Shown: positions 26,404-45,470 of the stretch, piece after piece
How positions within the stretch are numbered: the stretch's first letter is position 1
How the letters are laid out: each line of letters begins with the position of its first letter
Assembly: GCA_963808125.1 (NCBI GenBank)
Contig: CAWEEP010000059.1
Coordinates: 39,380 to 103,379 of the forward strand
DNA: 64,000 nucleotides
Source: Candidatus Dormiibacterota bacterium
GTDB lineage: Bacteria > Chloroflexota > Dormibacteria > Aeolococcales > Aeolococcaceae
Reading direction: 5' to 3'
Notes under the pieces: model-generated
Databases searched by the model: none
What the model saw: the letters and a program-made list of their open reading frames with translations, nothing else
Told to the model about the DNA's origin: nothing
Program-made: the position numbers and the translations under genes

Positions 26404-27264
26404 TCACGCTTTCCGGGCCGCGACGATGGTCATTTCGCCAAATCTGAGGGGTAGACGCACATGTGCCGGTCTGAGCGCGAGCAGCCCCCGACTTGCCCGC
26501 GTCAGGGCCCGCATCGGGCCCGGTCCGAACGTCGCCGCCTGCCCGAACAGATAGGCAAAGGTCACGTATTTGGTGGTGGGGACGACCTTGAGGATCTTCA
26601 TCCCGGCCGAGTCCAGGGCGATTCGCATACCACGCAGGGAGAACAGGACCAGATGCTCCTCCCGATACTGTGGCCACAGGCGTCCTGTCATGCGATGAAC
26701 GGCTGATCCCGCCCGCGGGGTGGAGATCAACAGCCGACCCTGCGGCGCGAGAACGGCGGCCGCGGCACCGAGCGTCTCGCCCGGCGATCGCACATGCTCG
26801 ATGAAGTCGAACATAGTCACGATGTCCCAGCCGCCCTTGACGGTTACGGGATCGAGCTCCCCGCAGAGAAAGTCGGCGTCGGGGACTCGCTTCCTCGCCA
26901 CATCGATGGCCGCGGCATTCAGATCAACTCCGGTGACCTTCAGTCCGGCTGAGACAGCCGCCTCAGCGAGTTCGCCCTGGGCACAGCCGACATCGAGAAG
27001 GCGCGCGCCGGCGACCGGCTTGAGGAACGCCAAGGCTCGCAAGAACGTTCTGGCCTTCATGGCGCGAACGACCGGAGCCCTTTCCCATTGCCATGGCTCG
27101 TAGTAGCTGGGACCGTAGATCGCCGACAAGCGCGCGTCGTCCGGCTGAGGGGAGAGGAACTCCGAGTCGCAGTCCATGCACCGGACCAGGCGCGTATACC
27201 CATACACGGCACGCCCGGCGGCCACCCCTATCTCGACGCCGCAGGCGGGACAGCTTTCAGCCAT
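26404..27264 (-). CDS. Class I SAM-dependent methyltransferase with N-terminal zinc ribbon
   Basis: MAESCPACG…CMDCD, then motif I LLDVGCAQG, post-I, motif II …IVTMFDFIEHV…, motif III …LAPQGRLLIST…. Confidence 0.8.
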   Translation of the reverse strand: MAESCPACGVEIGVAAGRAVYGYTRLVRCMDCDSEFLSPQPDDARLSAIYGPSYYEPWQWERAPVVRAMKARTFLRALAFLKPVAGARLLDVGCAQGELAEAAVSAGLKVTGVDLNAAAIDVARKRVPDADFLCGELDPVTVKGGWDIVTMFDFIEHVRSPGETLGAAAAVLAPQGRLLISTPRAGSAVHRMTGRLWPQYREEHLVLFSLRGMRIALDSAGMKILKVVPTTKYVTFAYLFGQAATFGPGPMRALTRASRGLLALRPAHVRLPLRFGEMTIVAARKA

Positions 27265-27369
27265 GTTCGAGCGTCACCTCCGCCACTCGGACCGGATGCG
27301 CCACTCGCTCCGGCGTGTCGACGGCCCGTATCCTACGGCTTCCCGCCTGGGCTCAGGCGGCGTCCGCGC

Positions 27370-30300: not shown

Positions 30301-30442
30301 TTTCACGACACTGCCGCGCGTGGGTTCGACCGTCTTCCTGAGAGTCTGCAGCTGCATCCAGTGGCACGGGTACGCCGCCGGCTCGCTTCATCTCCTCTTG
30401 CAGGGGGCGCCCACCGACATGACCGTGCGGGCGCTGCCATGA
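27370..30442 (+). CDS. Very large polytopic membrane protein (about 1020 aa) with C-terminal extracytoplasmic domain, GT-C-like glycosyltransferase candidate; two frame breaks (about nt 29501-29509 and 30226-30234)
   Basis: ATG at 27370. At least 15 hydrophobic helices. The first loop carries …TFYDFDIYQYLDYLY… (acidic DxD-like motif as in GT-C). The C-terminal roughly 300 aa is soluble (…VDFAEEMGVTYYLLGRVPGAPFVVISSAQ…). Frame 1 to frame 2 joins at a C5 run (tcccccaacc). Frame 2 to frame 3 joins at cccctccgg. The final C-terminus …ATIQVTDQTLGAKASHVISFTTLPRVGSTVFLRVCSCIQWHGYAAG…RALP* overlaps the next gene start (ATGA). Confidence 0.6.
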
Positions 30443-33455: not shown

Positions 33456-34320
33456 GCCGGCGCATCGTCGTCACCGGCGCCGGTGGCGGCATCGGTGCCG
33501 CCACCGCCCGCCACCTCGCCTCCCTTGGCGACCGGCTGCTGCTGGTCGGCCGCCGGGAGGCGGCGCTCGAGGAGGTCAGGGCGTCACTTCCCGGTGGCCC
33601 CCACATGTCCCTGGCCCTCGACGTCTGCAACGAGAGGGCGTGGACCTTCGCCGCGAATTGGCTGGCGCCAGGGGACGCTGGATGGGCTGGTCACCGCTGC
33701 CGGTGTGCTGGGGCCAATCGGTCCCCCCGGCTCCTGGGACGTCGACGCGTTCCGGCAGACCATCGAGATCAACCTCGTCGGCACTCTCCTCTCCGTCCTC
33801 AGCCTGCTGGCGCCACTTCGGGCCGGCCACGGTGCAGTGGTCGCTTTCTCGGGAGGGGGTGCCACATCCCCCTTGCCGCGCTTCGACGCCTACGCCGCCT
33901 CTAAGGCGGCGGTGGTGCGACTGGTCAACCTCGCGGTGGAACTCGCGCCGGACGGAGTGCGGATCAACTGCGTGGCACCGGGCTTCGTGGCCACGGCCAT
34001 CCACCAGGCGACCATCGACGCGGGGCCGCAACTCGCCGGCGACGCCTACTACGAGCGCACCCGTCGCGCCCTCGACGTCGGCGGCGACTCCGCGGACACG
34101 GCCGCCGAACTGACCGCCTTCCTCCTCTCGCACGATGCCGAGGGGATCACCGGACGGCTGCTCAGACGCCCGGTGGGACCCGTGGACCGATCCGGTCTTT
34201 CGCGAGCGCCTGCGCAGCGACCCCGACCTGGCCCGGCTCCGCCACATCGACGACCAGGCTTTCACGGCGCGTCGGCGGCCTCGCCGCGCAGCCAGATCCG
34301 GATCAGCCCCTTGTTCTTGA
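33452..34320 (+). CDS. Short-chain dehydrogenase/reductase (SDR); two frame breaks; 3' end abuts the IS element
   Basis: GTG at 33452. RIVVTGAGGGIGAATARHLA (TGxxxGxG), …AFSGGGATSPLPRFDAYAASKAAVVRL… (YxxxK), …INCVAPGFVAT…. Breaks at about 33668 and 34165. The C-terminal 20 codons may be IS-derived. Confidence 0.6.
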
Positions 34321-35565
34321 TCTGTCCGAACACCGGCTCCACCACCTGCTGGCGCAACCGGTAGCGCTCTCGCCCCCGCTTGGTCATCAGCCTGCGCTTC
34401 ATCCGCTCCCGGCGCGTCAGCCCCGCCGGAATCCGGCCCCGCGGCGACGGAGGGCACCGGTAGCTCCGCGGCATCCGCCCGGTGGCCACGTAGGCGGTGA
34501 CGCCGAGCTCATCCAGCGCCTCGAGATTGGCCTCCGAGCAGTAGCCGGCGTCCGCCGAGAGCTCCCTCGGCAGCCCACCCAGGTTGGCCTCGATCTCGGC
34601 CACCACCTCCAGCAGTTGCGGGCAGTCGGCAGCGCTGTTGGTCAGCCTGGCCGCCACGATCACCTGCGACGAGGCGTCCACCGCCGCCTGCCCGTTGTAG
34701 CCCTGGATGAAGGCCCCCTCGCCGCCCTTCATGATCCGCGACTCCGGGTCGGTGAAGTTCTGCTGCGCCTTGGCCTCCGGCTCCGTCTTCCCCTCGGCCT
34801 GGGCCCGCTCCTTCAGGTCCTTGATCGCCGTGCGGATCGCCTCTCGCCGCTTCGCCGCCGTGCGCAGGTTCTCCGGCAGCTCGTCGCCGTCGTTGTCCGC
34901 CCCGTACTTGGCGTCCTCCTCGGCGTCGGTCTGGTCGCACTCCCGAAACCACTTGTCCAGCTCGGCGGTGATCCGGTCCACCTCCGGCTGCATCCGGTCG
35001 TAGCTCATGGCCGCATGCTTGCTGGCGTTCGCCTTCAGCTTGGTGCCGTCCACCGCCACGTGGTCCAGCTTCACCAAGCCCTCCTCACGGCAGAGCAGCA
35101 GCACCTGCTGGAACAGCCCTCCCAGCGCCGCCAGGTGGCGCAGCCGGAAGCTGTTGAGCGTTCGGAAGTCAGGCCGGTTGCCCGCCGCCAGCATCATGCA
35201 GCCGACGTCCCGAGTGGCCAGCCTCGCCAGCTTCCGGCAGCTGCGGGTGCCCACCGCGTAGGCGTACAGCCACAGCTTGGTCATCGTCCGAGGGTGGTAC
35301 GGCGGATAACCGCGCAGCTCCTCCTCGTACACCGCCTCGATCTCGGACAGGTCAAGCGCGTCGACGATGTCGCTGATGAAGTGGGCCATGTCCCCCTCGG
35401 GGACCCACTCCTGCACCGACGAAGGCAACAGCAGCATCTGGTTGGGAGCGTACGGGCGGAACGTCTCCGGCATCCCCAGATTGACTCACATCCGCCCCGC
35501 CACCCGCCAGCGGTTACCGGGACGGGCTGCTAGGGGGGACTCCGGGTCCAGCGTACGACACGGCT
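34200..35565 (-). mobile_element. Insertion sequence (IS1182 family), about 1.3-1.4 kb, boundaries approximate
   Basis: Single transposase ORF flanked by the SDR gene (3' side) and the GT2 fusion gene stop at 35570. No clean terminal inverted repeats could be verified by eye. Confidence 0.5.
34262..35473 (-). CDS. IS1182-family (IS5-superfamily) transposase, DUF772 N-domain plus DDE domain
   Basis: MPETFRPYAPNQMLLLPSSVQEWVPEGDMAHFISDIVDALDLS… (DUF772-type N-terminus). …VAVDGTKLKANAS… and …YCSEANLEAL…AYVATG… give the DDE triad context. C-terminal …VEPVFGQIKNKGLIRIWLRG is characteristic of this family but ends about 20 aa short of typical members. Confidence 0.75.
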   Translation of the reverse strand: MPETFRPYAPNQMLLLPSSVQEWVPEGDMAHFISDIVDALDLSEIEAVYEEELRGYPPYHPRTMTKLWLYAYAVGTRSCRKLARLATRDVGCMMLAAGNRPDFRTLNSFRLRHLAALGGLFQQVLLLCREEGLVKLDHVAVDGTKLKANASKHAAMSYDRMQPEVDRITAELDKWFRECDQTDAEEDAKYGADNDGDELPENLRTAAKRREAIRTAIKDLKERAQAEGKTEPEAKAQQNFTDPESRIMKGGEGAFIQGYNGQAAVDASSQVIVAARLTNSAADCPQLLEVVAEIEANLGGLPRELSADAGYCSEANLEALDELGVTAYVATGRMPRSYRCPPSPRGRIPAGLTRRERMKRRLMTKRGRERYRLRQQVVEPVFGQIKNKGLIRIWLRGEAADAP

Positions 35566-35569
35566 GGGC

Positions 35570-37084
35570 TCAGCTCTCCCGGTACAGCCTGACGAAGCGG
35601 AACTTGAAGCAGGCTCGGACCCAGGTCAGCGGGTCCCGAAAGAAGGCGATCTTCTTGCCCTGACCGAAGGAGCGTGACCGGTACCCGACGGGGATCTCGC
35701 GCGGGTGATAGCCGGCGCGCACCAGCTTCCCGGTCAGTTCCCAGTCGAAGTCGAAGCGATTGGACTCGAAGGTCAACCCGTACAGGCAGTCGCGCCGGAT
35801 CACCTTGTACATCGTGAAAGGATCCCGCAGTCGCTGCCCGTACACGACGTTGAAGAGGGTGAGGAACACCTCATGACCGAGGTTCATGAAGTGGCTCCTC
35901 ATATCGCGCTGGCCGAAGTCCCGCAGCCCCCATGAGCCGTCCGGACTGGTCCGCATGCCGAGGACGAAGCCGACCTCGCCCGAGCGCAGCGGCTCCAGCA
36001 GGACCTCATAGTCGTCGATGTCGTACTCCATGTCGGCATCCTGGATCAGGACGAAATCACCGCGAGCCGCCTCGAGCCCGGCGCGGACGGCGTGGCCCTT
36101 GCCCCGCGGGCGCTCCTCCAGGATGACCCGGACGCGCGGGTGGTCCGAGTGCTGAAGCACCTGGGTCCGAGTGCCATCGGTTGAGTTGCTCTCCACCACG
36201 ATGACGTCGATCTCCATGCCGGGGATCGTCTTGGCGAGCACCAGGCTCATGGTCTTCTCGAAAGTGGAGGCCTCGTTGTATACCGCCATGATCACGGAGA
36301 GCCGTTGGAGGCGCTCGACCGGCGGCGGCAGCGCGCTGCGGCGCGCGCTGACGACGAGCGCGCCATCACAGCGGCGGAGCCGGGGCTCCTCGAAGCCTTC
36401 CCGGAACAGCAGCCCCTGAAGGGTCTCACCGGGAAACGGAGGGGCAGTGTCCGGCCCCGACCCCATCCGGGATCGGTGACGGCCGACGCCCGACGCCCGG
36501 TCGTGGCGTAAATGGAGGACCAACCGCCCACCCGGCCGGAGCCGGCGATACGCCCACGCCAGCAGATCGGCGGGCTCGACGGCCGTTTCGAGGACGCCGT
36601 CGAGGACGCAGACGGAGAGCCCCAGATGGTCTGCGGGGACCCCCAGGCTGCGATCGGTGTCGATCGCGGCGAGTTCAACCCTTTCGAGGGCCGCCGACAC
36701 CTGGAGCGCCGGGGGCAGCCCATCCGACACCCAGAGTGCGCCGCCGTCACCACCACGGGCACCGGCGGAGAGGGGCTCCGCGATGGCGGCGAGAAGGGCG
36801 CTCTGAACGTGGGCCGACGCTCCACGCCCGGCGGGCGCAGGGGCGCGCGCACCCGCAGAGGAGAAGTTCACGGCTCGGGCGATGCTATCCCACCCGGTGG
36901 AGGACCCGCCTCCCCGGCCGATCGGCGCTGCGCGCCGGGATCCGATGCGCCTCTTCCTGCCCGGGTGAGTGTTGTGTACGATTGCTCCGCTTTGGGAAGA
37001 GGGCGCGCACCCCGCGAGGGGACGGACCCGGGTCGGCTCGCCGGTTCGGCGTGCGACGAGGGCTACCCGGATCTGATCGGCCAT
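35570..37084 (-). CDS. Fusion protein: N-terminal methyltransferase-like domain (degenerate SAM motif I) plus C-terminal family-2 glycosyltransferase
   Basis: C-terminal domain …LSVIMAVYNEASTFEKT…VIVVESNSTDGT…FVLIQDADMEYD… (GT2 DxD). N-terminal region aligns with the 26404 MTase core (…ALLAAIAEPLSAGAR—ALWVSDG…RVELAAIDTD…SVCVLDGVLETAVEPADLLAWAYRRLRPGGRLVL…) but has lost the GxGxG. Start uncertain (ATG rc 37084, possible later starts). The upstream 259 codons of the 763-aa ORF are antisense to a + strand MTase and are rejected. Confidence 0.6.
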   Translation of the reverse strand: MADQIRVALVARRTGEPTRVRPLAGCAPSSQSGAIVHNTHPGRKRRIGSRRAAPIGRGGGSSTGWDSIARAVNFSSAGARAPAPAGRGASAHVQSALLAAIAEPLSAGARGGDGGALWVSDGLPPALQVSAALERVELAAIDTDRSLGVPADHLGLSVCVLDGVLETAVEPADLLAWAYRRLRPGGRLVLHLRHDRASGVGRHRSRMGSGPDTAPPFPGETLQGLLFREGFEEPRLRRCDGALVVSARRSALPPPVERLQRLSVIMAVYNEASTFEKTMSLVLAKTIPGMEIDVIVVESNSTDGTRTQVLQHSDHPRVRVILEERPRGKGHAVRAGLEAARGDFVLIQDADMEYDIDDYEVLLEPLRSGEVGFVLGMRTSPDGSWGLRDFGQRDMRSHFMNLGHEVFLTLFNVVYGQRLRDPFTMYKVIRRDCLYGLTFESNRFDFDWELTGKLVRAGYHPREIPVGYRSRSFGQGKKIAFFRDPLTWVRACFKFRFVRLYRES

Positions 37085-37099
37085 GCGCAGGCAGACCGT

Positions 37100-38078
37100 C
37101 ACAGCGGCGGGAGCCTGCGGACCTGTCCTCTGTGCGGCGAGCCACCGCGGCTCAATTCGCGAATCCGCTCGCCCTTCTCGTCGATGACCTTTCAGCTGGG
37201 TCGGTGCGACACCTGCGGTATCGGCCTCGTCCTCGATCCGCGAACCGACTTCGCGAACCTCGACGGGCCCGAGTACTAGGCGGGGAAGGGGGCCGACCCC
37301 TGGATCGACTACGTGGCGGACGAGGCGCCCGGATCCATCCGCGAGATCGAGTGGCGGGGCATCGTGCGGACGGTGGCTGACGTCGTGAGGCGCCGGCGGC
37401 CGGATTCCAGGGCGTGGAACCTCCTGGACTGGGGAGCCGGCCTGGGCGGACTGGTGCGGACGGCTCGACAGCTGGGCATTGAGGCCGACGGTCTGGACGA
37501 GGGTTACGCGGCGACCGTACTGGCCGCCAAGGGCCTTCTGGCTCGACCGATTCCGGAATTGCGTGAGCGCTATGACGTCGTCACGGCGATCGAGGTCGTC
37601 GAGCACCTGACCGACCCCCTGCCGGTGCTGCGCGCCATGGCGAGCTGCCTCAAGCCGGGGGGTTTCCTCTTCATCACCACGGGCAACCTGGCGAAGGCCC
37701 CGACCTCGTTGGACCGCTGGCAATACGCCCGCATCCCCGACGTCCACGTGACCTTCTGGTCGCCTCGAGCTTGGGCGGGGGCACTCGGCCGGATCGGGCT
37801 GGAACTCGGTCCCTCTCCCGATTGCCCGGGTCGACTCGCGCATCGTGCAATACAAGGTCATGAAGGCCCTACCGAGGTACCGCCGTCGGCTGGCCGCGAC
37901 GCTCCCGATGTGGAGGCCCGCGGCGCGGTTCGTCGATTTCAGTCATGGGGTGTCGGGATTCCCCATCGGCGTCAGACCGATGGCGATGCAGGCCAAACCC
38001 ATGGATGCGGCGGCCGAGGTCGAGTTGGTGGGGAGCCCGTCGATCTCGCTCCGCGAAACCCGGGAGGCCGACGTTTGA
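37100..38078 (+). pseudogene. Zinc-ribbon class I SAM methyltransferase (paralogue of 26404-27264) interrupted by an in-frame TAG (37277-37279) and a frameshift near 37825-37840
   Basis: …LRTCPLCGEPPRL…CDTCGIGLVLDPRTDFANLDGPEY*AGKGADPW…LLDWGAGLGGL (motif I)…DVVTAIEVVEHL…LKPGGFLFITT…, then the C-terminus …IVQYKVMKALPRYRRRLAATLPMWRPAARFVDF… in the 37845 frame. This parallels the paralogue domain by domain. The start codon is not identifiable. Whether this is true gene decay or sequence error is open. Confidence 0.45.
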
Positions 38079-38140
38079 ACTGGCGTCGGAGTGGCCGGCC
38101 AGAGGTTGTAATCCGCCCGTGAAGTCGGTATAAGGGCACC

Positions 38141-40489
38141 ATGCTCTCCTCCCCCAAACTCCACCGCTGGCTCGCGCTTGGATGCGCCGGGGTCCTCCTC
38201 GGAAGCAGCCTGGTTCTCGCGGCCAGCCGCGTGGAGGCCTCGGCGGCGGGCGGTTCTGTCTTCTCAACGGCGCAGTCCGTGTTCCCGTCGATCAGTTCCC
38301 TGCCAAGCAAGGTGTCTGGGGTCGGCGCGCCGACGTCGTCGAGCCCGAGGCCGGGTGGATCTCAGAAGGAAGTGACCAACACCGCCGACCAGGCGAACGG
38401 CGCCTACACCCCGCTGACCCCCTATCGCATCTGTGACACGCGGACCGGCCATGGCACTTCCTGCCAAGGCAATACACTCGGCCCCCTGGGCACCCTGAGC
38501 CTCACCGTCACCGGTGTCGACGGGGTGCCCGACACGGCGACGGCGGTGGCCCTCAACGTCACCGTCACCGACACCGACGCCAACAGTTTCCTCACCGTCT
38601 ATCCCGCCGGAGAGGCGACTCCCACCGTCTCCAACCTCAACTGGTTTCCCGGGATGACCATCCCCAACCTCGTCATCGTCCCCCTCGGCACCGCCGGGCA
38701 GGTGACCTTCTTCAACGGATTCGGCACCGTCGACGTCATCGCCGACCTGGAGGGGTACTTCTCCCCTGAGGGCACCGGCCAGACCGCCGGCAGCTACGTC
38801 CCCCTGACCCCGGCCAGGATCGCCGACACCCGCCCCGGCAGCGGCGAGCCCTATGCCGGCGACACCCTTCAGGCGGGCAGCACGCTGAACATCCAGGTCA
38901 CCGGGGAGGGTGGGGTGCCCGCCACCGGCGTCGCCGGCGCGCTCCTCAACGTCACCGTCACCGGCACCAGCGCGCAGAGCTTCCTCACCGTCTACCCGCA
39001 GGGGGTGAGTATGCCGCTGGCCTCCAACCTGAACTGGATGGCCGGAGACACGATCCCCAACCGGGTGGTGGTGCCGGTCAGCCCCACCACCGGCCAGATC
39101 ACCGTCTACAACCCTTTCGGCACGGTGGACGTGATCGTCGACGTCGACGGCTACTTCACCACCGGCACCACGACGCCGGCGGGAGCCAGCCTGTTCGGCA
39201 CGGTCAGCCCCGTCCGGGTGCTGGACAGCCGGCTGAGCAGCCAGACCCTCAGTTCCAGCGGCGTCGTCACCCAGCAGATCGCCGGAGTGGACGGCATCGC
39301 CTCCAACGCCACCGCGGTGGTCTCCAACATGACCGCCACCGACACCTCCTGGGAGAGCTTCTTCACGGTCTATCCGGGAGGGTCCCGGCCCAACGCGTCG
39401 GACCTGAACTGGTTCGCGGGCAACACCATCCCCAACCTCACCGTGGCCACCCTGAGCAGCACCGGCAGCGTCTCGGTCTTCAACGCCTTCGGCTACGCGG
39501 ACCTCATCATCGACGCCTCCGGCTACTTCGCCCCGGAGACGCCGGCCCCGGTGACGATCCTCACGACCTCGCTTCCCTCGGCGACGGTCGGTGACATCGG
39601 CTACTCGGCGACGCTGAGCGGCTACGGGGGCACCCCGGCGTACACCTGGACAATGGACGGCGGGTCGCTTCCCCCGGGCCTCAGCCTCTCCACCGCCGGG
39701 GTGATCTCCGGCCAGCCCACGGCGTCGTCCGGCTCACCGTATCACTTCACGGTCGAGCTGACCGACTCCACCACCATCGTCAAGACGGCGACGCAGGCAC
39801 TGTCGATCACCGTCGCGTCGACCATGACGGAAAGCCTCGGGTACAGCTATAACTGGTCCGGCTACGCGGTGACCGGAGGCCCGTTCACTTCGGTCACGGG
39901 GACCTTCGTCATGCCCAATCTCTATTCCTCTGACCCAGACAACACGGCGATGTCGGAGTGGGTCGGCATCGACGGTTTGGACAACGATAATCTGATCCAG
40001 GCGGGCATCATCGAGTACCCGAACGGATCAGGGGGTTACAACTACTTTCCGTGGTGGGAGATCCTTCCGAACGATGCGGTGGACATCTTCCCGGGAGCGC
40101 TGACTGATCTAGCGGCCGGGGACAGTGTCACCATCACGATCAGCCAGATCGACGGCACCGATTGGGCGATCAACTTTGTCGACACCACGCAGTCGGAGAC
40201 GTTCACGACCGACCAGAAGTACACCGGAGCAGCGACGTCGGCGGAGTGGATTGTGGAAACCCCCAATTACGACGTTCTCGATCCGGCCGCAGGGGACTTT
40301 ATGGCGAACTACACCGCCACGGGGTTCCGTGACCTCGGTGCGGTCGGACCCGTGTATGGCGTGTCGGGCGGGACTGGCCTGACCGAGATCCTGATGGTTC
40401 AGACTCCTCCGGGGGGGCCTGAAGCGCAGGTTTCCACACCGTCCTCCCTCGACTTCTCGTGGGCTTTAACATGGCATACGGGAACCTAG
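38141..40489 (+). CDS. Secreted multidomain protein: signal peptide, 3 copies of an unassigned roughly 120-aa repeat, He_PIG (putative Ig) domain, then a C-terminal eqolisin/G1 glutamic peptidase-like domain
   Basis: The signal peptide is MLSSPKLHRWLALGCAGVLLGSSLVLAASRVEA. Repeat pattern: Y.PLTP.RI.DTR-[Cys pair]-…LNVTVT.T…SFLTVYP.G…P..SNLNW..G.TIPN.V.VP…GQ.T..N.FG.VD.I.D..GYF. He_PIG region …SLPPGLSLSTAGVISGQPTASSGSPYHFTVELTD…. C-terminal domain …YSYNWSGYAV…SEWVGIDG…NLIQAGII…AEWIVETP… matches my memory of the scytalidoglutamic-peptidase fold with catalytic Gln and Glu contexts. Confidence 0.85.
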   Translation: MLSSPKLHRWLALGCAGVLLGSSLVLAASRVEASAAGGSVFSTAQSVFPSISSLPSKVSGVGAPTSSSPRPGGSQKEVTNTADQANGAYTPLTPYRICDTRTGHGTSCQGNTLGPLGTLSLTVTGVDGVPDTATAVALNVTVTDTDANSFLTVYPAGEATPTVSNLNWFPGMTIPNLVIVPLGTAGQVTFFNGFGTVDVIADLEGYFSPEGTGQTAGSYVPLTPARIADTRPGSGEPYAGDTLQAGSTLNIQVTGEGGVPATGVAGALLNVTVTGTSAQSFLTVYPQGVSMPLASNLNWMAGDTIPNRVVVPVSPTTGQITVYNPFGTVDVIVDVDGYFTTGTTTPAGASLFGTVSPVRVLDSRLSSQTLSSSGVVTQQIAGVDGIASNATAVVSNMTATDTSWESFFTVYPGGSRPNASDLNWFAGNTIPNLTVATLSSTGSVSVFNAFGYADLIIDASGYFAPETPAPVTILTTSLPSATVGDIGYSATLSGYGGTPAYTWTMDGGSLPPGLSLSTAGVISGQPTASSGSPYHFTVELTDSTTIVKTATQALSITVASTMTESLGYSYNWSGYAVTGGPFTSVTGTFVMPNLYSSDPDNTAMSEWVGIDGLDNDNLIQAGIIEYPNGSGGYNYFPWWEILPNDAVDIFPGALTDLAAGDSVTITISQIDGTDWAINFVDTTQSETFTTDQKYTGAATSAEWIVETPNYDVLDPAAGDFMANYTATGFRDLGAVGPVYGVSGGTGLTEILMVQTPPGGPEAQVSTPSSLDFSWALTWHTGT
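38396..39539 (+). repeat. Three tandem in-frame protein repeats (about 390 nt each) inside 38141-40489
   Basis: Repeat starts at about nt 38396, 38786 and 39182. Each unit carries a conserved N-x-T site (ALNVTVT, LLNVTVT, VSNMTAT). Units 1 and 2 carry RI[CA]DTR near the start; unit 1 has a Cys pair. Confidence 0.7.
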
Positions 40490-40502: not shown

Positions 40503-40778
40503 GTGACCTCGGGCGGCCAGATCTACACCACCGACGTGGCGTACTCGGGACCCGCGTCGGCGGCGGAATGGGGCGGCGGGGTGGCGCCGTTCACCGTGTC
40601 AACCCCCTTCGCCGACTACGGGCAGACGACCTTCAGCCAGCTCAGTGTCGCCGGCCCCGAGACCTCGCTGCTGCGGGAGACCCTGTCGCAGAGCGGCGTT
40701 CAACTCTCGACCCCGTCTGCGCTCGATTCCACCGGGTTCAACGTGGCGTACGGGAGCACGACACCCAGCCCTCCGTGA
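40503..40778 (+). CDS. Degenerate duplicated fragment of the G1-peptidase C-terminal half (91 aa), possibly a remnant
   Basis: GTG at 40503. …YSGPASAAEWGGGVAPFTVSTPFADYGQTTFSQLSVAG…SLLRETLSQSGVQLSTPSALDSTGFNVAYG parallels …YTGAATSAEWIVETPNYDVLDPAAGDFMANYTATGFRDLGAVG…TGLTEILMVQTPPGGPEAQVSTPSSLDFSWALTW of the upstream gene. It has lost the EWIVE glutamate context and is in a different frame from 38141-40489. Confidence 0.3.
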   Translation: MTSGGQIYTTDVAYSGPASAAEWGGGVAPFTVSTPFADYGQTTFSQLSVAGPETSLLRETLSQSGVQLSTPSALDSTGFNVAYGSTTPSPP

Positions 40779-40813: not shown

Positions 40814-41692
40814 TCAGCGGTCTGACGGGACCGCGCCCTTCGCCCCGTCGGCACGCAGAGCGGACATGTAGGCGTGGAGGCCCTCCCGCCAGTCGGGGAG
40901 GGGGGGCTCGCCGAGTTCTCTCCAGCGCCGGTTGTCGAGCACGGAGTAGGCGGGGCGGGGCGCCGGCGTCGGGTATTCGGCACTCCCGATCGCCTCGACC
41001 GGGACGTCCAGTCCGGCGTCGGACACGATCGTCTCGGCGAACCCGTGCCAGGTAGACACCCCCGCGTTGGTGAGGTGGAAGGTGCCGAGGTCCCCACGCT
41101 CGAGCAGCCGGACGATCGCCGAAGCGAGATGGCCGGTCCAGGTGGGCGACCCGTACTGGTCCGCAACGACCCGCAGCGGCCTCCCGTCGCGCGCCAGGCG
41201 GAGCATGGTGAGGACGAAGTTGGGCCCCTGCTGGCCGTACAGCCAGGCGGTCCTGACGATCTGGTGGCGGTGCCACGTCTCGCGCACCGCCTCCTCGCCG
41301 GCGAGCTTCGTTCGCCCGTAGGCGCTGCGCGGCGCCGGCGGCGCAGTCTCGTCGATGGGCGAGGTGGCGGTGCCGTCGAAGACGTAGTCGGTGCTCAGGT
41401 GGCAGAGGAGGACATCCCGCTCCCGGCATGCCTTGGCAAGCACACGAGGGCCGTCGGCGTTGACAGTTCGCGCCGCGTGCTCCGCGTCCTCGGCCGCGTC
41501 CACCCGGGTCCAGGCGGCGCAGTTGACGACGGCGTCCGGAACAACATGGTCGAGCAGCGTCGCCACCGACTCGGGGCTGCGGATGTCGACACTGTCGACG
41601 TCGTGCCCGGAGGCTTGGTGGCCGGTGCGAGAGAGGGTGTCCAGGAGTTCGCGACCGAGCTGCCCCCGCGAGCCCACCACCTCGATGCGCAC
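40814..41692 (-). CDS. rmlD: dTDP-4-dehydrorhamnose reductase
   Basis: GTG rc at 41692 (VRIEVVGSRGQLGRELL…). …VVNCAAWTRVDAAE…, …LSTDYVFDG…PIDETAPPAPRSAYGRTKLAGEE… (YxxxK). The upstream 193 codons of the ORF are rejected. Confidence 0.85.
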   Translation of the reverse strand: MRIEVVGSRGQLGRELLDTLSRTGHQASGHDVDSVDIRSPESVATLLDHVVPDAVVNCAAWTRVDAAEDAEHAARTVNADGPRVLAKACRERDVLLCHLSTDYVFDGTATSPIDETAPPAPRSAYGRTKLAGEEAVRETWHRHQIVRTAWLYGQQGPNFVLTMLRLARDGRPLRVVADQYGSPTWTGHLASAIVRLLERGDLGTFHLTNAGVSTWHGFAETIVSDAGLDVPVEAIGSAEYPTPAPRPAYSVLDNRRWRELGEPPLPDWREGLHAYMSALRADGAKGAVPSDR

Positions 41693-41699
41693 GAGCGCC

Positions 41700-42713
41700 T
41701 CAGGCCGCGCCCGGCGGCAGCGGCTTGTAGTTGCGCTGGTAGAACTCCCAGAACTCGCCGCTCTTGAGAGGGCGCCACCACTCCGGGTGCTCGACATACC
41801 AGCGAACGGTGCGCTCCATGCCCGCGGCGAAGGACACCCGAGGCGCCCACCCGAGGCCCTGCAGCTTGCTGCAGTCCAGCGCGTAGCGGCGGTCGTGGCC
41901 AGGGCGGTCGGCGACCAGCTGCTTGAGCGAGTCCGGCTTGCCCAGAAGTCGCAGAACCGTGTCGGCGACGGTGCGCCCATCGATCTCGCCGCCCATCCCG
42001 ACGTTGTAGTCCTCACCGGTGCGCCCGTCGCGCAGCGCCTTGTCGATGCCCCGACAGTGATCCTCGACATGGATGTAGTCGCGCACCGCGGAGCCGTCGC
42101 CGTAGATGGGTAGCGGCCTGTCCTCGATGGCGTTGGTGATGAAGAGGGGAATGATCTTCTCCGGGTACTGATACCAGCCGTACGTGTTGGAGCCGCGCGT
42201 GACGATGGCGGGGAAGCCGAACGATGCGCGGTAGGCCTTGACGAGCATCTCCCCGCCGGCCTTGCTGGCACTGTACGGGCTCCTCGGATCGAGGCAGTCG
42301 CCCTCGCGGCTCCGCCCTTCGTTCACCTCGCCGTAGACCTCGTCGGTGCTCACGTGCAGGAAGCGCTGGTGGCCGCTCGCCCGTGCCGCCTCCATGAGCA
42401 CGTAGACCCCGTGGACATCGGTCTGGATGAACTGCCCCGCTGCCTCGAGGGAGCGGTCCACGTGCGATTCCGCCGCGAAGTTGACGATGACGTCCGTTTC
42501 CCTCGCCAGCGTCGCGACGGTAGCCGAGTTGCAGATGTCGCCGTGGACGAAGCGCATTCGGGGATCGTCCGCCACCGGGTCCAGGTTGCGAAGATTGCCA
42601 GCGTAGGTCAGCTTATCGAGGACGATCACGGAGTCCCCGGCATGCTCGCGAAGAGTCATCCGCACGAACTCGCTGCCGATGAAGCCGGCTCCGCCCGTGA
42701 CCAGGAGCCTCAT
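41700..42713 (-). CDS. rmlB: dTDP-glucose 4,6-dehydratase
   Basis: MRLLVTGGAGFIGSEFVR…, …HVSTDEVYG…, …YSASKAGGEMLVKAY…, …YIHVEDHCRGI…. Textbook RmlB. Confidence 0.92.
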   Translation of the reverse strand: MRLLVTGGAGFIGSEFVRMTLREHAGDSVIVLDKLTYAGNLRNLDPVADDPRMRFVHGDICNSATVATLARETDVIVNFAAESHVDRSLEAAGQFIQTDVHGVYVLMEAARASGHQRFLHVSTDEVYGEVNEGRSREGDCLDPRSPYSASKAGGEMLVKAYRASFGFPAIVTRGSNTYGWYQYPEKIIPLFITNAIEDRPLPIYGDGSAVRDYIHVEDHCRGIDKALRDGRTGEDYNVGMGGEIDGRTVADTVLRLLGKPDSLKQLVADRPGHDRRYALDCSKLQGLGWAPRVSFAAGMERTVRWYVEHPEWWRPLKSGEFWEFYQRNYKPLPPGAA

Positions 42714-42723
42714 TCCAGCACCC

Positions 42724-44937
42724 CTATTCGAACCAGCCCTGAACGTCGACCACGGCGTTGATCGTACCGTACAGGTTGTACAGGTCGAACGCCCCGGGAT
42801 GGCTGCCTGAGGTGGCCAGCTGGACGATGGTCAGGTTGGGGATGACCTGGCCCGTCCAGGCATTGACGTCACTGGCGAGGGGCAGGGCGTCACCGTCTGG
42901 GTAGGCGGTGAGGAAGGTGGGGGACGTCCCGCTCACCGCCGTGAGGTTGGCCAGGACGGCAACGGGCGGGGAGCTGCCGCCCGAGGCGGGAAGGCCGTCG
43001 ACGCCGGACACCTGGACCGTCATGCTCTGTCCGGGGCCCAGGGGATTCCCCGAGCACTCCGTCGCAAAGCCCAGGCTGGCGATTCGCGTGTCGCAGATCC
43101 GGGTCGGCGCGATGGCGTAGAAATGGGCTCCCGCCAACGTCTCGGCACCGGTGCCGAACCAGCCGTTGACGTCGAGGATCGCATTGATGCTGCCCTGCAT
43201 GTTGTAGACGCAGACGTCGGCGTTCGGACCGAGACGGGTGATCACCCGGTTGGGTCGGGTCTCGAAGGGCCAGACGTTGACGTTGGAGTAGGCAGGTGGA
43301 CTGGTGGGGCAGGCGTCGGCGCTGTTGGGAGAGGTGACACTCAGGAAGGATTGCTGGGTTCCGGAGACTGCGGTGAGGTTGAGGGCAACGGCCTCCGCCG
43401 TGCCGTTGGTCGGCACCGATGCTGTCCCCGCCGCCGCACCTGCGGGCAGCCCGCCAACGGTGATCTTCGTCCAGGAGTTGACCCCAAGCGGAGTGCTCGC
43501 GCAGCCCGTGCCGCTCGACGGACGGGTGTCACAGATGCGCAAGGGGGCGATGGCGTGGAAGAGGCCTGGAGCCGAGGTCCCCGACGCTGCGGCGAAGTAG
43601 CCGACGACGTCGACGGCGACGTCGACGCGCCCATACGGGCTGTAGATGCTGACCTGGCCGGCGTCGCCGAGGGGTACCACCGCGAGGTTGGCGACGATGT
43701 CCCCGGCGAGGACGTTGATGTTGGAGGTGCCGGGCAAGGCGGCGCCGGTGGGATAGACCGTCAAGAAGGTGGCCTGGGTCGGCCCAATGGCCGTGACGTT
43801 GAGCACCACCTCCTGGGCGTCGGCGGGCACCAGCTGACCCTGAGGGCCGGTGACCCCGGCGATAAACATGCTCACCGTCCCCCCTGGCCCGATGGGATGC
43901 CCGGAGCACCCGGTGCCCGTGCCGACCCGCGTGTCACAGATGCGATAGGGGGTGAGCGGCGTGTAGGCACCGGCGCTTCCGAGCGGTGCGTACGCCCCGC
44001 CGCCCCACAGCAGGGATGAGTAAGCGCTCAGGAACTCGTCGACATCGACGTTCGGGTCGTTGTTGGGGACGGGAAAACCGCTGTTGATCTCGTACTGCCA
44101 TGCGACGGTGGTGTTGGCGCAGGGCAGCGGGTACGGGGTCTCGTCGGCCGGGTCCCAGGGCGGGGCATTCCCTGCGATGGGGAAGTACGGTGGCTGTTGG
44201 CCCGGATACCAGTAATACGGCTCGAATTCGTTCGTCCAGAGAGCGACGCCGTTGGCGAGCGCGGGCTCCGCTGCCACCGCCGAGCACCACGCCCCCGAGG
44301 TGCCGGCAAACGGGCCCGCGGTGTTGTAACTGTTTTCGTAGAAGCCGGGGACGTAGCCGCTGCCCGAGTCGGCGAAGGCCTGGTACCAGCTCTCGATGTA
44401 CGGGGTGGAGATGCCGTCATAGATTTCGACGTCGCGGAAGATCGCCGTTCCCGGTGGGGCGCCCAGCGTGTGGGCCTGCTGAATGGCCGTCTGGGCCTCG
44501 CTGGTGCCCTGGGCCGTCTCCGCCTGGACGCTCGAGGTGTTGAATCCGTCGGCGTCGGCGATGAGCAGGATGCTCACACCGTTCGAGGCGAGGAAGCTGA
44601 CCTCCGCAGCGCTGAGGCCGTTCGTCCCGCAGCGGTTGGACCCCAGATACCGACCGATGAAGGCGGGCGTGCCCATGCCGACCGTCTCTGCGATCGGGAC
44701 GACGCTCGTGGCCGAGTCGCAGCTGTCGATGCCCCAGAGGGTCGCGGGATAGGAGGCGGCCGCAACGGCGACCGGCTGGAACTGGAATGCCAGAGCGCAC
44801 ACCGCCACCGCCACCGCGGCACCGATCAGGCTGCGCCACCGTCGAGATCGGCTGGCCAAGGATCCTCCGCCCGTGTGTTCGTCCTGTCGCCGGCCACCCC
44901 TGCCGCGCGGGCGCCGACCGCCCGGGGATTCTCGCAC
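42724..44937 (-). CDS. Secreted protein: N-terminal DUF1906/Rv2525c-like glycoside-hydrolase-like domain plus 3 copies of the same roughly 120-aa repeat family as 38141-40489
   Basis: Hydrophobic leader …SLIGAAVAVAVCALAFQ…. …LWGIDSCDSATSVVPIAETVGMGTPAFIGRYLGSN…ILLIADADGF… resembles the DUF1906 TIM-barrel hydrolase-like family (family call from memory). C-terminal repeats …YTPLTPYRICDTRVGTGTGCSGHP…VLNVTAIGPT…FLTVYPTG…VPLGDAGQVSIYSPYGRVDVAVDVVGYF…, each with a Cys pair and an N-x-T. Confidence 0.8.
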   Translation of the reverse strand: MRESPGGRRPRGRGGRRQDEHTGGGSLASRSRRWRSLIGAAVAVAVCALAFQFQPVAVAAASYPATLWGIDSCDSATSVVPIAETVGMGTPAFIGRYLGSNRCGTNGLSAAEVSFLASNGVSILLIADADGFNTSSVQAETAQGTSEAQTAIQQAHTLGAPPGTAIFRDVEIYDGISTPYIESWYQAFADSGSGYVPGFYENSYNTAGPFAGTSGAWCSAVAAEPALANGVALWTNEFEPYYWYPGQQPPYFPIAGNAPPWDPADETPYPLPCANTTVAWQYEINSGFPVPNNDPNVDVDEFLSAYSSLLWGGGAYAPLGSAGAYTPLTPYRICDTRVGTGTGCSGHPIGPGGTVSMFIAGVTGPQGQLVPADAQEVVLNVTAIGPTQATFLTVYPTGAALPGTSNINVLAGDIVANLAVVPLGDAGQVSIYSPYGRVDVAVDVVGYFAAASGTSAPGLFHAIAPLRICDTRPSSGTGCASTPLGVNSWTKITVGGLPAGAAAGTASVPTNGTAEAVALNLTAVSGTQQSFLSVTSPNSADACPTSPPAYSNVNVWPFETRPNRVITRLGPNADVCVYNMQGSINAILDVNGWFGTGAETLAGAHFYAIAPTRICDTRIASLGFATECSGNPLGPGQSMTVQVSGVDGLPASGGSSPPVAVLANLTAVSGTSPTFLTAYPDGDALPLASDVNAWTGQVIPNLTIVQLATSGSHPGAFDLYNLYGTINAVVDVQGWFE
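42727..43974 (-). repeat. Three tandem in-frame protein repeats inside 42724-44937
   Basis: Units begin at …AYTPLTPYRICDTR, …AIAPLRICDTR and …AIAPTRICDTR. Same family as the 38396-39539 repeats, with 30-45% identity by eye. Confidence 0.7.
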
Positions 44938-45032: not shown

Positions 45033-45470
45033 CTACCCGAGCTCCAGACGCTCGATACGGCCCTGCCTGCGGTCCACCGTCGCCGTCAGATGGTGGCTCA
45101 GCGAGACGGCCGGGACCGGCGCTAAGGCGGGACCCCAGACCACCTCGTCATCGGCGACCTCCAACTCCACCTCCACCTGGTTGGACTCCTCCTCGGGCCA
45201 GTAGGCGGTGGTGACGCAGCGCTCTCCCGCGTCCTCCAGGGAGGAGGCGGCGCGCCCGATCAAGTGGTAGGTGTCGGGGTCACGGCGAACCGCGTCGAGG
45301 GCCGCGGGGTCGAGGTAGTCGAGGCGGGGATGCTGGGGGGAGTCGAGGCGCGAGAGGTCACCGAGAAGGCGGCTGAGCAGCTCGCCGACGCGGGTCGTCT
45401 CAGACGCCCGCACGGCGGCATCCTTGCTCCACCCCTCCTCCCGAACGGGGGCCACGTGGATGAAGGTCAT
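45033..45470 (-). CDS. Hypothetical protein (145 aa)
   Basis: No recognisable motif. Sits downstream of the secreted repeat protein. Confidence 0.35.
   Translation of the reverse strand: MTFIHVAPVREEGWSKDAAVRASETTRVGELLSRLLGDLSRLDSPQHPRLDYLDPAALDAVRRDPDTYHLIGRAASSLEDAGERCVTTAYWPEEESNQVEVELEVADDEVVWGPALAPVPAVSLSHHLTATVDRRQGRIERLELG

Follow-up and report, generated by a model that had tools for sequence, protein, structure and literature searches.

The gene at positions 42724..44937 on the minus strand (hereafter gene A) may encode an exported, lysozyme-like enzyme that carries at its C-terminus a triple repeat module acting as a lectin-like anchor to a glycopolymer of the cell envelope, a reading to which we give an even chance of being correct. 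It lies in a window of 64,000 nucleotides from an uncultured soil bacterium of the Dormibacterota, this being the whole stretch of DNA that was analysed, close to a second gene (gene B) whose product bears the same module. An anchoring or targeting role is consistent with the predicted fold of the repeats, which is a jelly-roll similar to that of carbohydrate-binding modules (CBMs), with their fixed number of three, with the variety of their extracellular partner domains, and with the linkage of their genes to the rhamnose biosynthesis gene rmlB.

The open reading frame (ORF) of gene A is genuine; it comprises 737 codons with a coding-like GC3 of 0.84 and in its longest form reaches back to a GTG at 44937, giving a product of 737 aa. 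The most likely start is the TTG at 44859; a GGAGGA sequence lies four nucleotides upstream of it, and the resulting protein of 711 aa has the exact length of an identical database protein (P0001). From this start, which the ORF list, the GGAGGA and the identity to P0001 support, the gene (42724..44859, minus strand) encodes a signal peptide, then the DUF1906 head and three jelly-roll repeats. A search around the gene for sites resembling promoters or terminators found none, and an Rfam scan of 37-47 kb of the window returned no matches. The sequence-only reading of this DNA had spoken of an island; the composition, however, gives no sign of one, as the GC content at the locus (0.675-0.69) falls within the range of the window (0.66-0.73), and a composition-defined genomic island was rejected.

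The gene A product is predicted to begin with a cleavable signal peptide (44755..44859, minus strand), which was assigned by inspection as MASRSRRWRSLIGAAVAVAVCALAFQFQPVAVAAA with cleavage ahead of a serine. By eye, it is composed of an n-region with an RR pair, a hydrophobic core, and an A-A-A motif followed at the cleavage site by S, directly ahead of the conserved TLWGID; the hydrophobic maximum over 15 residues is 2.69 on the Kyte-Doolittle scale. Such a peptide was looked for as a check that could have told against a surface role, and its layout proved to be kept in the full-length homologues, with the RR present in approximately 12 of 17. The n-region, SRRWRSL, possesses the RR but lacks the full Tat consensus, and a search of the whole protein against NCBIfam produced nothing at E ≤ 0.1, and hence no match to a Tat-signal model. 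Given the RR, export could go by Tat or by Sec. As the first step of the mechanism that we propose, this signal peptide would carry the gene A product across the membrane.

In the second step, the N-terminus of the mature protein would be formed by a glycoside hydrolase-like head that belongs by family to DUF1906/Rv2525c (44002..44742, minus strand) and whose activity is presumed. Indeed, the claim of the sequence-only reading that this domain is DUF1906-like was borne out by the Pfam family PF08924 (Rv2525c_GlyHyd-like; aa 93-246, E=8.3e-17, 62.4 bits against a cutoff of 27.2) and by the PDB entry 1sfs_A, which the single sequence retrieved at E=2.9e-13 and a family profile at 7.5e-30. The alignment to 1sfs_A covers nearly all of that chain (residues 22-222 of 240). 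The head also matches a PHROG endolysin family (phrog_13480, 1.2e-7), and the orthologue of gene A at another locus (L003) likewise matches PF08924. Membership of this family points to a TIM-barrel fold.

The likeness to mycobacterial Rv2525c, which had also been proposed, holds at the level of the family and not for Rv2525c itself: judged by profile matches, the head is nearer to the Geobacillus DUF1906 structure 1sfs, and Rv2525c was absent from the PDB matches at E ≤ 1 when the family profile of the head was used. Rv2525c is a Tat substrate, and a role as a peptidoglycan hydrolase is suspected for the DUF1906 family; the gene A product, too, is predicted to be exported and has an RR in its signal peptide. 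In contrast to 1sfs, gene A adds the C-terminal triple module of 416 aa, which could not be accommodated in the 240 residues of the 1sfs chain and which Rv2525c is not known to possess either.

GH25 lysozymes of the Cpl-1 and cellosyl type share the TIM-barrel clan with the head and typically show a G-I-D in the first strand, followed by the motifs D-x-E, W-Q-Y and D-x-[ND]-x-F. An equivalent order is seen in the gene A head, a likeness at the level of motifs. Among 24 homologues of the head, LWGID is conserved at 80% or more, and GTAIFRDVE, WQY and VDVDEF at 95% or more, the latter two corresponding to the conserved WQYE (aa 280) and VDVDEF (aa 297) of gene A. On the basis of motif conservation, the candidate catalytic residues (737-aa numbering, minus strand) are D71 (44725-44727), D169 (44431-44433) and E171 (44425-44427), which are kept at 80-95% or more in the same homologues and which, judged from the motifs, may be equivalent to the catalytic residues of GH25. 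PF08924 was the sole family returned, with no match of gene A to the GH25 model PF01183 at E ≤ 0.1, and so the head is best described as GH25-like and not as a GH25 member. Since the GH25-type motif set is kept in the subfamily, the head would be expected to cut glycan strands, either in peptidoglycan or in some other glycan of the wall.

The missing GH25 match would also suit a head that is catalytically inactive and serves in glycan binding or regulation, which would make gene A a non-enzymatic, wall-associated protein. 1sfs, the closest solved relative, has Asn at the position aligned to D169, and we know of no member of the DUF1906 family, Rv2525c included, with a demonstrated activity. 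We nevertheless consider an inactive head very unlikely, in view of the conservation across the subfamily of D71, D169-x-E171, WQY and DxDxF and the resemblance to a phage endolysin family. For Rv2525c, it has been stated that the activity "has not been established" (bioRxiv 10.1101/2021.02.25.432019).

The remainder of the gene A product, its C-terminal 416 aa, consists of three repeat units of approximately 135 aa each, assigned on the minus strand from a unit HMM and alignments: unit 1, a predicted eight-stranded jelly-roll (aa 322-455, 43573..43974), unit 2 (aa 456-601, 43135..43572), and unit 3 (aa 602-737, 42727..43134), which ends at the C-terminus of the protein. When applied to the ORFs of the window, the unit HMM scored each unit at E=1e-48 to 1e-60 and the repeat was confined to genes A and B. 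The two triplets are 39% identical over 416 aa (E=4e-72), while identities between individual units among the six range from 29% to 58%, which substantiates the proposal that both proteins carry the same repeat family.

Gene B (38141..40489, plus strand) encodes a protein of 782 aa with a signal peptide and a linker rich in Ser and Pro; HMM matches and alignments in addition identify the triple module (38393-39538), a He_PIG Ig domain (39554-39814, 4.1e-10), and a G1/A4 glutamic peptidase (39851-40348). The peptidase assignment rests on PF01828 (aa 571-736, 91.5 bits against a cutoff of 22.3, E=6.3e-26). A lipoprotein signal was considered for gene B and rejected, as its A-L-G-C falls outside the lipobox consensus. 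The linker is rich in Ser, Pro and Thr, and linkers of this kind are often O-glycosylated. Two different heads, DUF1906 in gene A and a glutamic peptidase in gene B, are thereby mounted on a shared repeat and bracket rmlB and rmlD, as the sequence-only reading had suggested.

That reading had further assigned to each unit a conserved Cys pair forming a likely disulfide loop. The pair is present in all three units of gene A (C334/C344, C469/C479 and C615/C628), the first Cys lying within R-I-C-D-T-R; however, units 2 and 3 of gene B lack it, and it occurs in only about a quarter of the units of the wider family. Where it does occur it behaves like a disulfide, the first Cys being almost never found without the second, but it is an optional feature of a subfamily. 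A further pair, C543/C576, is specific to unit 2 and corresponds to C222 and C255 of the triplet, which are conserved at 90% or more in the subfamily. The N-x-T reported for each unit was verified, as it is invariant, in the form L-N-[VLM]-T, in all six units of genes A and B. It lies inside a predicted β-strand (residues 55-63 of the model), and this location, together with its invariance across the family, makes a glycosylation sequon unlikely and suggests a structural or ligand-contact role instead. Furthermore, strict conservation in every unit, which extends across phyla, marks a set of polar residues (R11, D14, R16, N59, T61, S84, N87, N96 and D122) and suggests a conserved binding or metal site over a plain spacer.

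Sequence searches of Pfam, NCBIfam, PHROGs and the PDB found no match to the repeat. For the six window units, no Pfam model was matched at E ≤ 10, and hence neither CWB2 (PF04122) nor SLH (PF00395). DUF7709 was considered as a name for the repeat and discarded, as it gave one sub-threshold match in one protein and none in the window units.

Structure prediction of the repeats had been proposed as a check, and the AlphaFold2 model of the triplet consists of three jelly-rolls with a pLDDT of 96.2 and a pTM of 0.93. The linkers between units reach 88-96 in this model; when unit 1 is modelled alone (pLDDT 95.5), the same linker scores 68. The triplet is therefore predicted to be one rigid body of three tandem jelly-roll β-sandwiches, and the pTM, the confidence of the linkers and a best fold match that is trimeric suggest that the units probably pack with pseudo-three-fold symmetry as a single-chain pseudo-trimer. 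Folding into such a body, of predicted compactness and presumed symmetry, would be the third step of the mechanism.

The number of units appears to be fixed. Among the top-scoring matches, a sample biased toward multi-copy proteins, exactly three units are present in 241 of 262 proteins, the others possessing 6, 3+2, 4 or 2; several of the two-unit proteins are short and are probably fragments. The same holds for 90 of 98 ORFs across 79 genomic loci, which were found with a 96-sequence alignment and picked for their similarity to the gene A triplet. Moreover, the three positions are not interchangeable: units matched the HMM of their own position in 109 of 110 cases for unit 1, 110 of 110 for unit 2, and 105 of 110 for unit 3, and all six window units do so. 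This position-specific signature is kept in Dormibacterota; in four actinobacterial proteins there are exactly three units, but the positional signal is lost.

A compact, rigid body would also serve if the triplet bound no ligand and was a scaffold, a spacer or a lattice-forming element of the surface, with the adjacency of rmlB and rmlD reflecting rhamnose glycosylation of surface proteins, for which the linker of gene B would be of the appropriate kind, or simply conserved gene order. We consider this improbable. The polar residues that are strictly conserved in every unit across phyla speak for a ligand, β-sandwich spacers normally vary in number, and the fold matches lean to lectins and CBMs.

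Indeed, a Foldseek search with a single unit found as its best PDB match the β-sandwich of the Bdellovibrio Bd2133 fibre tip (PDB 8ok3 / 8ond; TMq 0.60, TMt 0.64, rmsd 3.8 Å, E=1.9e-4), a moderate similarity of topology at an identity of 12%. This tip is the adhesive end of the fibre and in the crystal forms a homotrimer with ions on its three-fold axis (PMC10769870); three chains are thus employed there, as against three copies in one chain here. Other matches of the single unit include CBM6, CBM36, a porphyran-binding CBM, a trimeric phage cement protein, BclA and the lectin Bc2L-C. The CBMs 1uy0, 1w0n and 5fui, matched with a probability near 1, resemble one unit in size and β-sandwich topology, but TM scores are 0.35-0.50, no sequence family is matched, and CBMs are not limited to triplets. 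Membership of the TNF/C1q family was rejected, as the matches are weak (BclA 0.36, Bc2L-C 0.41). The whole triplet, searched against the PDB and a viral library, retrieved multi-domain proteins at TM ≤ 0.26 (Vip3, Cry, the STIV triple jelly-roll and picornavirus polyproteins), matches that say "jelly-rolls" and are silent on the arrangement.

These single-unit matches, to CBMs and to a tip that recognises prey, raise the question as to whether the triplet targets foreign material. Gene A would in that case be a secreted bacteriolytic or foraging enzyme, binding the walls of other microbes or environmental polysaccharide in the manner of a CBM or of the receptor-binding tip of a phage or predator, and the match of its head to a phage endolysin family would agree with this. 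We hold such a role to be unlikely, though more plausible than a triplet that binds nothing. CBMs usually vary in copy number and are found mainly on glycoside hydrolases, whereas the number here is fixed at three, and searches of phage genomes and PHROGs turned up no homologue of the module.

The distribution of the module bears on the same question. The six-unit profile identified at least 35,822 cluster representatives at 50% identity, and the triplet repeat is thus a very large family that has no name in the databases searched. It is located at the N- or C-terminus of proteins of Dormibacterota and Actinomycetota, and is common in Streptomyces, Kitasatospora and Arthrobacter, examples of homologues being Arthrobacter WP_264638097.1 and Streptomyces WP_326594211.1. 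A genome may hold several paralogues, and as many as four triplet genes can stand in tandem. Its partners comprise DUF1906, CHAP, SLT, G1, S8 and S53 peptidases, TIG, fn3, Big, GH5, GH43, RHS and cutinase. The RHS proteins are polymorphic toxins that sit on conjugative plasmids, and they, like the GH5, GH43 and cutinase heads, are no less compatible with a module that targets foreign substrates or cells than with a self-anchor. Glycosidases, however, are a minority: most members pair the module with TIG, fn3 or a peptidase, or carry no enzyme, which argues against a foraging function. Many members consist of Ig-like domains and the triplet and nothing else, an arrangement that would also suit a scaffold.

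A self-directed anchor has precedents in two modules of Firmicutes, the CWB2 domain, which is of the α/β type, and the SLH domain, whose repeats are helical. CWB2 of Clostridioides difficile (PF04122) binds the polymer PSII and occurs as triplets of non-interchangeable repeats at either terminus of 29 paralogues, whose heads include peptidoglycan hydrolases and proteases (PMC4973711). The SLH triplet (PF00395) forms a pseudo-trimeric unit through which diverse surface proteins are anchored to a secondary cell-wall polysaccharide (PMC4973711). The module described here resembles CWB2 in its three non-identical, position-specific repeats, its placement at either terminus, its large paralogous family with varied heads, and the proximity of wall-polymer genes. 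It differs in its host phyla and in the units themselves, predicted to be all-β jelly-rolls of ~135 aa, with no sequence similarity to CWB2. The repeats of SLH measure ~55 aa against ~135 here and are not homologous, and no counterpart of the pyruvylated SLH ligand was identified. By analogy, the triplet would resemble CWB2 and SLH in function only and is unrelated to them by family. As the fourth step of the proposed mechanism, it would act as a lectin-like unit that keeps the enzyme on a glycopolymer of the envelope, as these triplets do.

The gene neighbourhood offers a hint as to the ligand. The sequence-only reading had placed gene A tail-to-tail with rmlB and rmlD, which is incorrect: the order on the minus strand is gene A, rmlB, rmlD, and it is gene B, on the plus strand, that converges on rmlD. 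The stop codon of gene A (TAG) is separated by 10 nt from the ATG of rmlB, encoding dTDP-glucose 4,6-dehydratase (41700..42713, minus strand; TIGR01181, 2.4e-127, above cutoff), and the end of rmlB is overlapped by the start of rmlD, encoding dTDP-4-dehydrorhamnose reductase (40814..41701, minus strand; TIGR01214, 1.5e-96; PF04321, 1.9e-99). This arrangement, in which no site resembling a terminator was detected, suggests that gene A, rmlB and rmlD share one transcript. Neither rmlA nor rmlC was identified beside them.

In five other genomes, at five of the 79 loci (L003, L011, L032, L068 and L073), rmlB lies at most 8 kb from a triplet gene. The linked genes differ in their heads and orientations, and at L011 rmlB is again bracketed by two of them. 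As the loci were picked by likeness to the gene A triplet, this linkage may be merely inherited gene order at one chromosomal site, and triplet genes do occupy a conserved site between rmlBD and nifS-suf, as a scaffold without a ligand would allow. Nonetheless, repeated linkage to the rhamnose genes of the cell itself suits a self ligand better than a foreign one and hints at a rhamnose-containing ligand for the triplet. A rhamnose-containing wall polysaccharide would be the leading candidate to which gene A is anchored, although this fifth step of the mechanism is speculative.

Extending the anchor reading beyond gene A, we suggest, tentatively and with more doubt than belief, that the triplet is a general non-covalent surface anchor of Dormibacterota and many Actinomycetota. 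It would then represent a third counterpart to SLH and CWB2, structurally unrelated to both: a single-chain pseudo-trimeric lectin on rhamnose-containing wall polysaccharide that displays dozens of enzymes, adhesins and toxins per genome. Dormibacterota are abundant in soil and are not known to have a cultured representative. Should the triplet serve as their shared anchor, their entire surface proteome could be listed with one HMM, and the ligand of the triplet would indicate which wall polymer is the main one. Streptomyces, Kitasatospora and Arthrobacter, being amenable to culture and manipulation, would allow the idea to be examined directly. Defining the triplet family would also give a domain to very many "hypothetical" proteins, and it would provide a context in which to find the substrate of the DUF1906 head, the activity of which is predicted.

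The sequence-only reading of this locus was largely right, with its gene arrangement, its start codon and the generality of its Cys pair requiring correction. The protein encoded at 42724..44937 (minus strand; protein A) and its sister at 38141-40489 (plus strand; protein B) do share a repeat family, as had been claimed: their triplets of repeat units align over 416 aa with 39% identity (E=4e-72). Units 1, 2 and 3 of A (aa 322-455, 456-601 and 602-737, numbered on the 737-aa form) lie behind its head, and identities between units range from 29% to 58%. A unit HMM run against the six-frame translation of the window recovered the six units of A and B (E=1e-48 to 1e-60) and no further ones. The Cys pair proposed for each unit is present throughout A (C334/344, C469/479 and C615/628) but is not general, being confined in B to unit 1. 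Both cysteines are missing from roughly three quarters of general-family units, and among about 800 units of relatives the first occurs without the second only twice; as the first hardly ever lacks the second, and both are often absent, the pair behaves in these sequences like an optional disulfide. The N-x-T, also predicted for each unit, is present and invariant. In the AlphaFold2 model it is part of a predicted strand (residues 55-63), which led us to reject it as a sequon and to read it, on the strength of the model, as structural or ligand-contacting.

The three units appear to form a single module. Exactly three were found in 241 of 262 collected proteins (local hmmsearch) and in 90 of the 98 unit-bearing ORFs of 79 genomic loci, both sets being top-scoring hits and hence biased toward multi-copy proteins. 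The remaining collected proteins possess six units (n=4), 3+2 units with a gap (n=7), four (n=1) or two (n=9), several of the last being short and hence probably fragments, while several ORFs lacking three units are frameshift-split or near locus ends. Position-specific HMMs were built from 130 unrelated family members; applied to 110 Dormibacterota relatives, they assigned unit 1 to its own position in 109 of 110 cases, unit 2 in 110 of 110 and unit 3 in 105 of 110; the own-position model also scored best for 6/6 window units. Four actinobacterial proteins retain exactly three units with the positional signal lost, which suggests that the number three is upheld by structure and not by descent alone. 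The triplet is an evolutionary unit and probably also a functional one.

Modelled by AlphaFold2 from an alignment of 96 sequences, the 416-aa triplet (pLDDT 96.2, pTM 0.93) is predicted to be all beta, each unit having eight strands and the linkers between units scoring pLDDT 88-96; when unit 1 was modelled alone (pLDDT 95.5), its trailing linker fell to 68. A pTM of 0.93 across three domains means, in the predicted structure, that the units adopt a fixed, packed arrangement and are not beads on a string. The top Foldseek match of a single unit is the C-terminal beta-sandwich of the Bdellovibrio fibre Bd2133 (8ond/8ok3; TM 0.60/0.64, rmsd 3.8 Å, 12% identity), followed by CBM6, CBM36, a porphyran-binding CBM and a trimeric phage cement protein, and further by BclA, the Bc2L-C lectin, ephrin-receptor ligand-binding domains and small-virus capsid proteins. 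The Bd2133 tip has been described as a beta-sandwich not characterised before, which assembles as a trimer, its three-fold axis occupied by water, sodium and chloride (PMC10769870).

None of the six units has a match in Pfam at E<=10, and the repeat has none among PDB sequences (E<=10), in NCBIfam or in PHROG. Among 1.84 billion 50%-identity cluster representatives, a six-unit profile nonetheless recovered 35,822 proteins at E<=1e-3, 26,437 at E<=1e-10 and 11,940 at E<=1e-30. The nearest relatives of the triplet are all from Dormibacterota MAGs, with several loci per genome. Seven Dormibacterota-type triplet contigs (loci L005, L010, L012, L023, L024, L026 and L030) are titled Binatia, Saccharimonadales or Acidiferrales, and these are probably mislabelled MAG taxonomies. 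Full triplets of 27-40% identity occur on plasmids of Streptomyces, Arthrobacter, Paenarthrobacter, Curtobacterium and Aeromicrobium, and the triplet is also found in records of Streptomyces, Kitasatospora, Streptacidiphilus, Arthrobacter, Pseudarthrobacter, Longispora and one Planococcus, nearly all annotated as 'hypothetical protein'. In one distant member, the database protein P0125, aa 631-669 within a repeat unit score 32.2 bits against the Pfam family DUF7709 (threshold 33.3); the window units show nothing comparable.

The DUF1906-like character proposed for the N-domain of A is borne out by the HMM for PF08924 (Rv2525c_GlyHyd-like, former DUF1906; E=8.3e-17, 62.4 bits, cutoff 27.2); no other Pfam family, the GH25 model included, matches protein A at E<=0.1. 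The head matches 1sfs_A, a Geobacillus structural-genomics protein, at 2.9e-13 in a PDB sequence search and a PHROGs endolysin family at 1.2e-7, while a profile of 21 head homologues reaches nearly the whole 1sfs_A chain at 7.5e-30 and does not recover Rv2525c from the PDB at E<=1. Among 24 head homologues, LWGID is at least 80% conserved, and GTAIFRD169-V-E171, WQY and VDVDEF are each at least 95% conserved. This order of motifs resembles that of GH25 muramidases (first-strand Asp, D-x-E, W-Q-Y, D-x-N/D-x-F), and on that basis the head is expected to be an active glycosidase. No DUF1906 protein, however, is known to have a demonstrated activity. The activity of Rv2525c 'has not been established' (bioRxiv 10.1101/2021.02.25.432019).

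The ORF of gene A is real, with a GC3 of 0.84 and codon-position GC typical of a gene, but its likely start is not GTG 44937 (737 codons) but TTG 44859, 26 codons inside and just downstream of GGAGGA. This yields a protein of 711 aa, the length also of the identical database protein P0001 (159,736-bp contig). Its N-terminus, MASRSRRWRSLIGAAVAVAVCALAFQFQPVAVAAA followed by SYPATLWGID, displays a basic n-region with RR, then a hydrophobic core leading to an A-x-A site, and this layout, ending directly before the conserved TLWGID, recurs in full-length homologues. Inspection hence points to a signal peptide and to export, by either Tat or Sec; no NCBIfam model, including that for Tat signals, matches whole protein A at E<=0.1. 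Protein A is an ordinary modular exoenzyme.

Gene A had been placed tail-to-tail with rmlB-rmlD, which is wrong: rmlB (41700-42713; TIGR01181, 2.4e-127) and rmlD (40814-41701, overlapping rmlB; TIGR01214, 1.5e-96) lie on the minus strand with it, and it is plus-strand gene B that converges on rmlD. The TAG stop of gene A is followed by GGGTGCTGGA and the rmlB ATG, and no terminator-like sites were found around gene A, so that A-rmlB-rmlD looks like an operon by its layout. Two different heads on one module do bracket rmlBD, as had been noticed: DUF1906 in A and a G1/A4 glutamic peptidase (6.3e-26) in B, the latter preceded by a signal peptide, a Ser/Pro-rich linker, the triplet and He_PIG (4.1e-10). 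Beginning 14 nt past the B stop, a 91-aa ORF (40503-40778, plus strand; no Pfam match) is 32% identical to the last ~90 aa of B's peptidase domain (E=2e-6) and is probably what is left of a duplicated peptidase gene that has decayed.

The genes left of B encode a methyltransferase, a GT2 glycosyltransferase, an IS transposase, a GFO/IDH/MocA oxidoreductase, a GHMP kinase, an epimerase/dehydratase and a second methyltransferase, with a nucleotidyl transferase farther out; neither rmlA nor rmlC was identified beside rmlBD in the window. The GT2 match (35570-36601, minus strand) covers only the C-terminal ~340 aa of an overlong 763-codon ORF (35570-37861), whose upstream part overlaps an opposite-strand methyltransferase gene (37313-38122). 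The transposase (DDE_Tnp_1 + DUF772; 34262-35473, minus strand), between the oxidoreductase and GT2, lies within this stretch of sugar-modifying genes. Two long ORFs (871 and 428 aa) without Pfam matches occupy 27088-30341 (plus strand), where GC is the lowest in the window (0.663) and the AT skew is strong (-0.228). On the right side of A are a conserved 145-aa ORF (45033-45470, minus strand; no Pfam match) and nifS-Rrf2-sufCBD. This ORF is 67-79% identical in the Dormibacterota loci L001, L002 and L005, near nifS each time, and appears tied to the nifS-suf cluster, not to gene A.

Among 79 related loci with 8-kb flanks, chosen by similarity to the window triplet, rmlB (69-79% identity) adjoins a triplet gene in five different MAGs, against a chance expectation that we estimate at about 0.4 (single-copy rmlB, genome of about 3.5 Mb). 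The orientations vary, as do the heads: DUF1906 in L003, a G1 peptidase and an unknown head in L011, and TIG in L032, L068 and L073. In L011 (535-9254), rmlB-rmlD is bracketed by the two triplet genes, all four being co-directional. The nifS side of the site is kept in L001, L002 and L005, and the loci may all go back to a single ancestral site, located between rmlBD and nifS-suf. Because of this, and because the loci were similarity-chosen, the linkage is only suggestive of a rhamnose-containing ligand.

The triplet occurs at either protein end, with partners related to peptidoglycan (DUF1906 again, in distant members, CHAP and SLT), peptidases (G1, pro-kumamolisin/S53, S8 and C39), Ig-like or repeat domains (TIG, fn3, Big, He_PIG, PKD, FG-GAP and RCC1 propellers), and GH5, GH43, CAP and cupredoxin. 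On actinobacterial conjugative plasmids it is fused to RHS toxin repeats and also to cutinase. At plasmid loci L082 (2743-6213), L083 (5776-10275) and L081 (2617-5826), from Arthrobacter, Paenarthrobacter (plasmids typed conjugative) and Curtobacterium (typed non-mobilizable), it is N-terminal to RHS-repeat toxins and to a protein with a C-terminal cutinase; the Curtobacterium gene adjoins transfer genes.

The CWB2 module of C. difficile is likewise a fixed, non-equivalent triplet, found at either terminus in many paralogues with PG-hydrolase and protease heads; its three repeats are all needed and not interchangeable, its ligand is the wall polymer PSII, and an equivalent description is given for the SLH triplet (PMC4973711). 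Our triplet shares with CWB2 its three non-equivalent repeats, N- or C-terminal position, PG-hydrolase and protease heads and many paralogues; the likeness to CWB2 and SLH is, however, functional only, with no sequence-family match in Pfam. We favour a self-anchoring role; targeting of foreign substrates ranks second, and a scaffold that binds no ligand comes last. Protein A would most likely be exported and work as a GH25-like wall glycosidase, with a jelly-roll lectin module, pseudo-trimeric within a single chain, keeping it in place. The point of interest is the module and not protein A: its family is very large and matches no entry of the databases that were searched, and in high-GC Terrabacteria it behaves, by analogy, as a third type of triplet anchor would.
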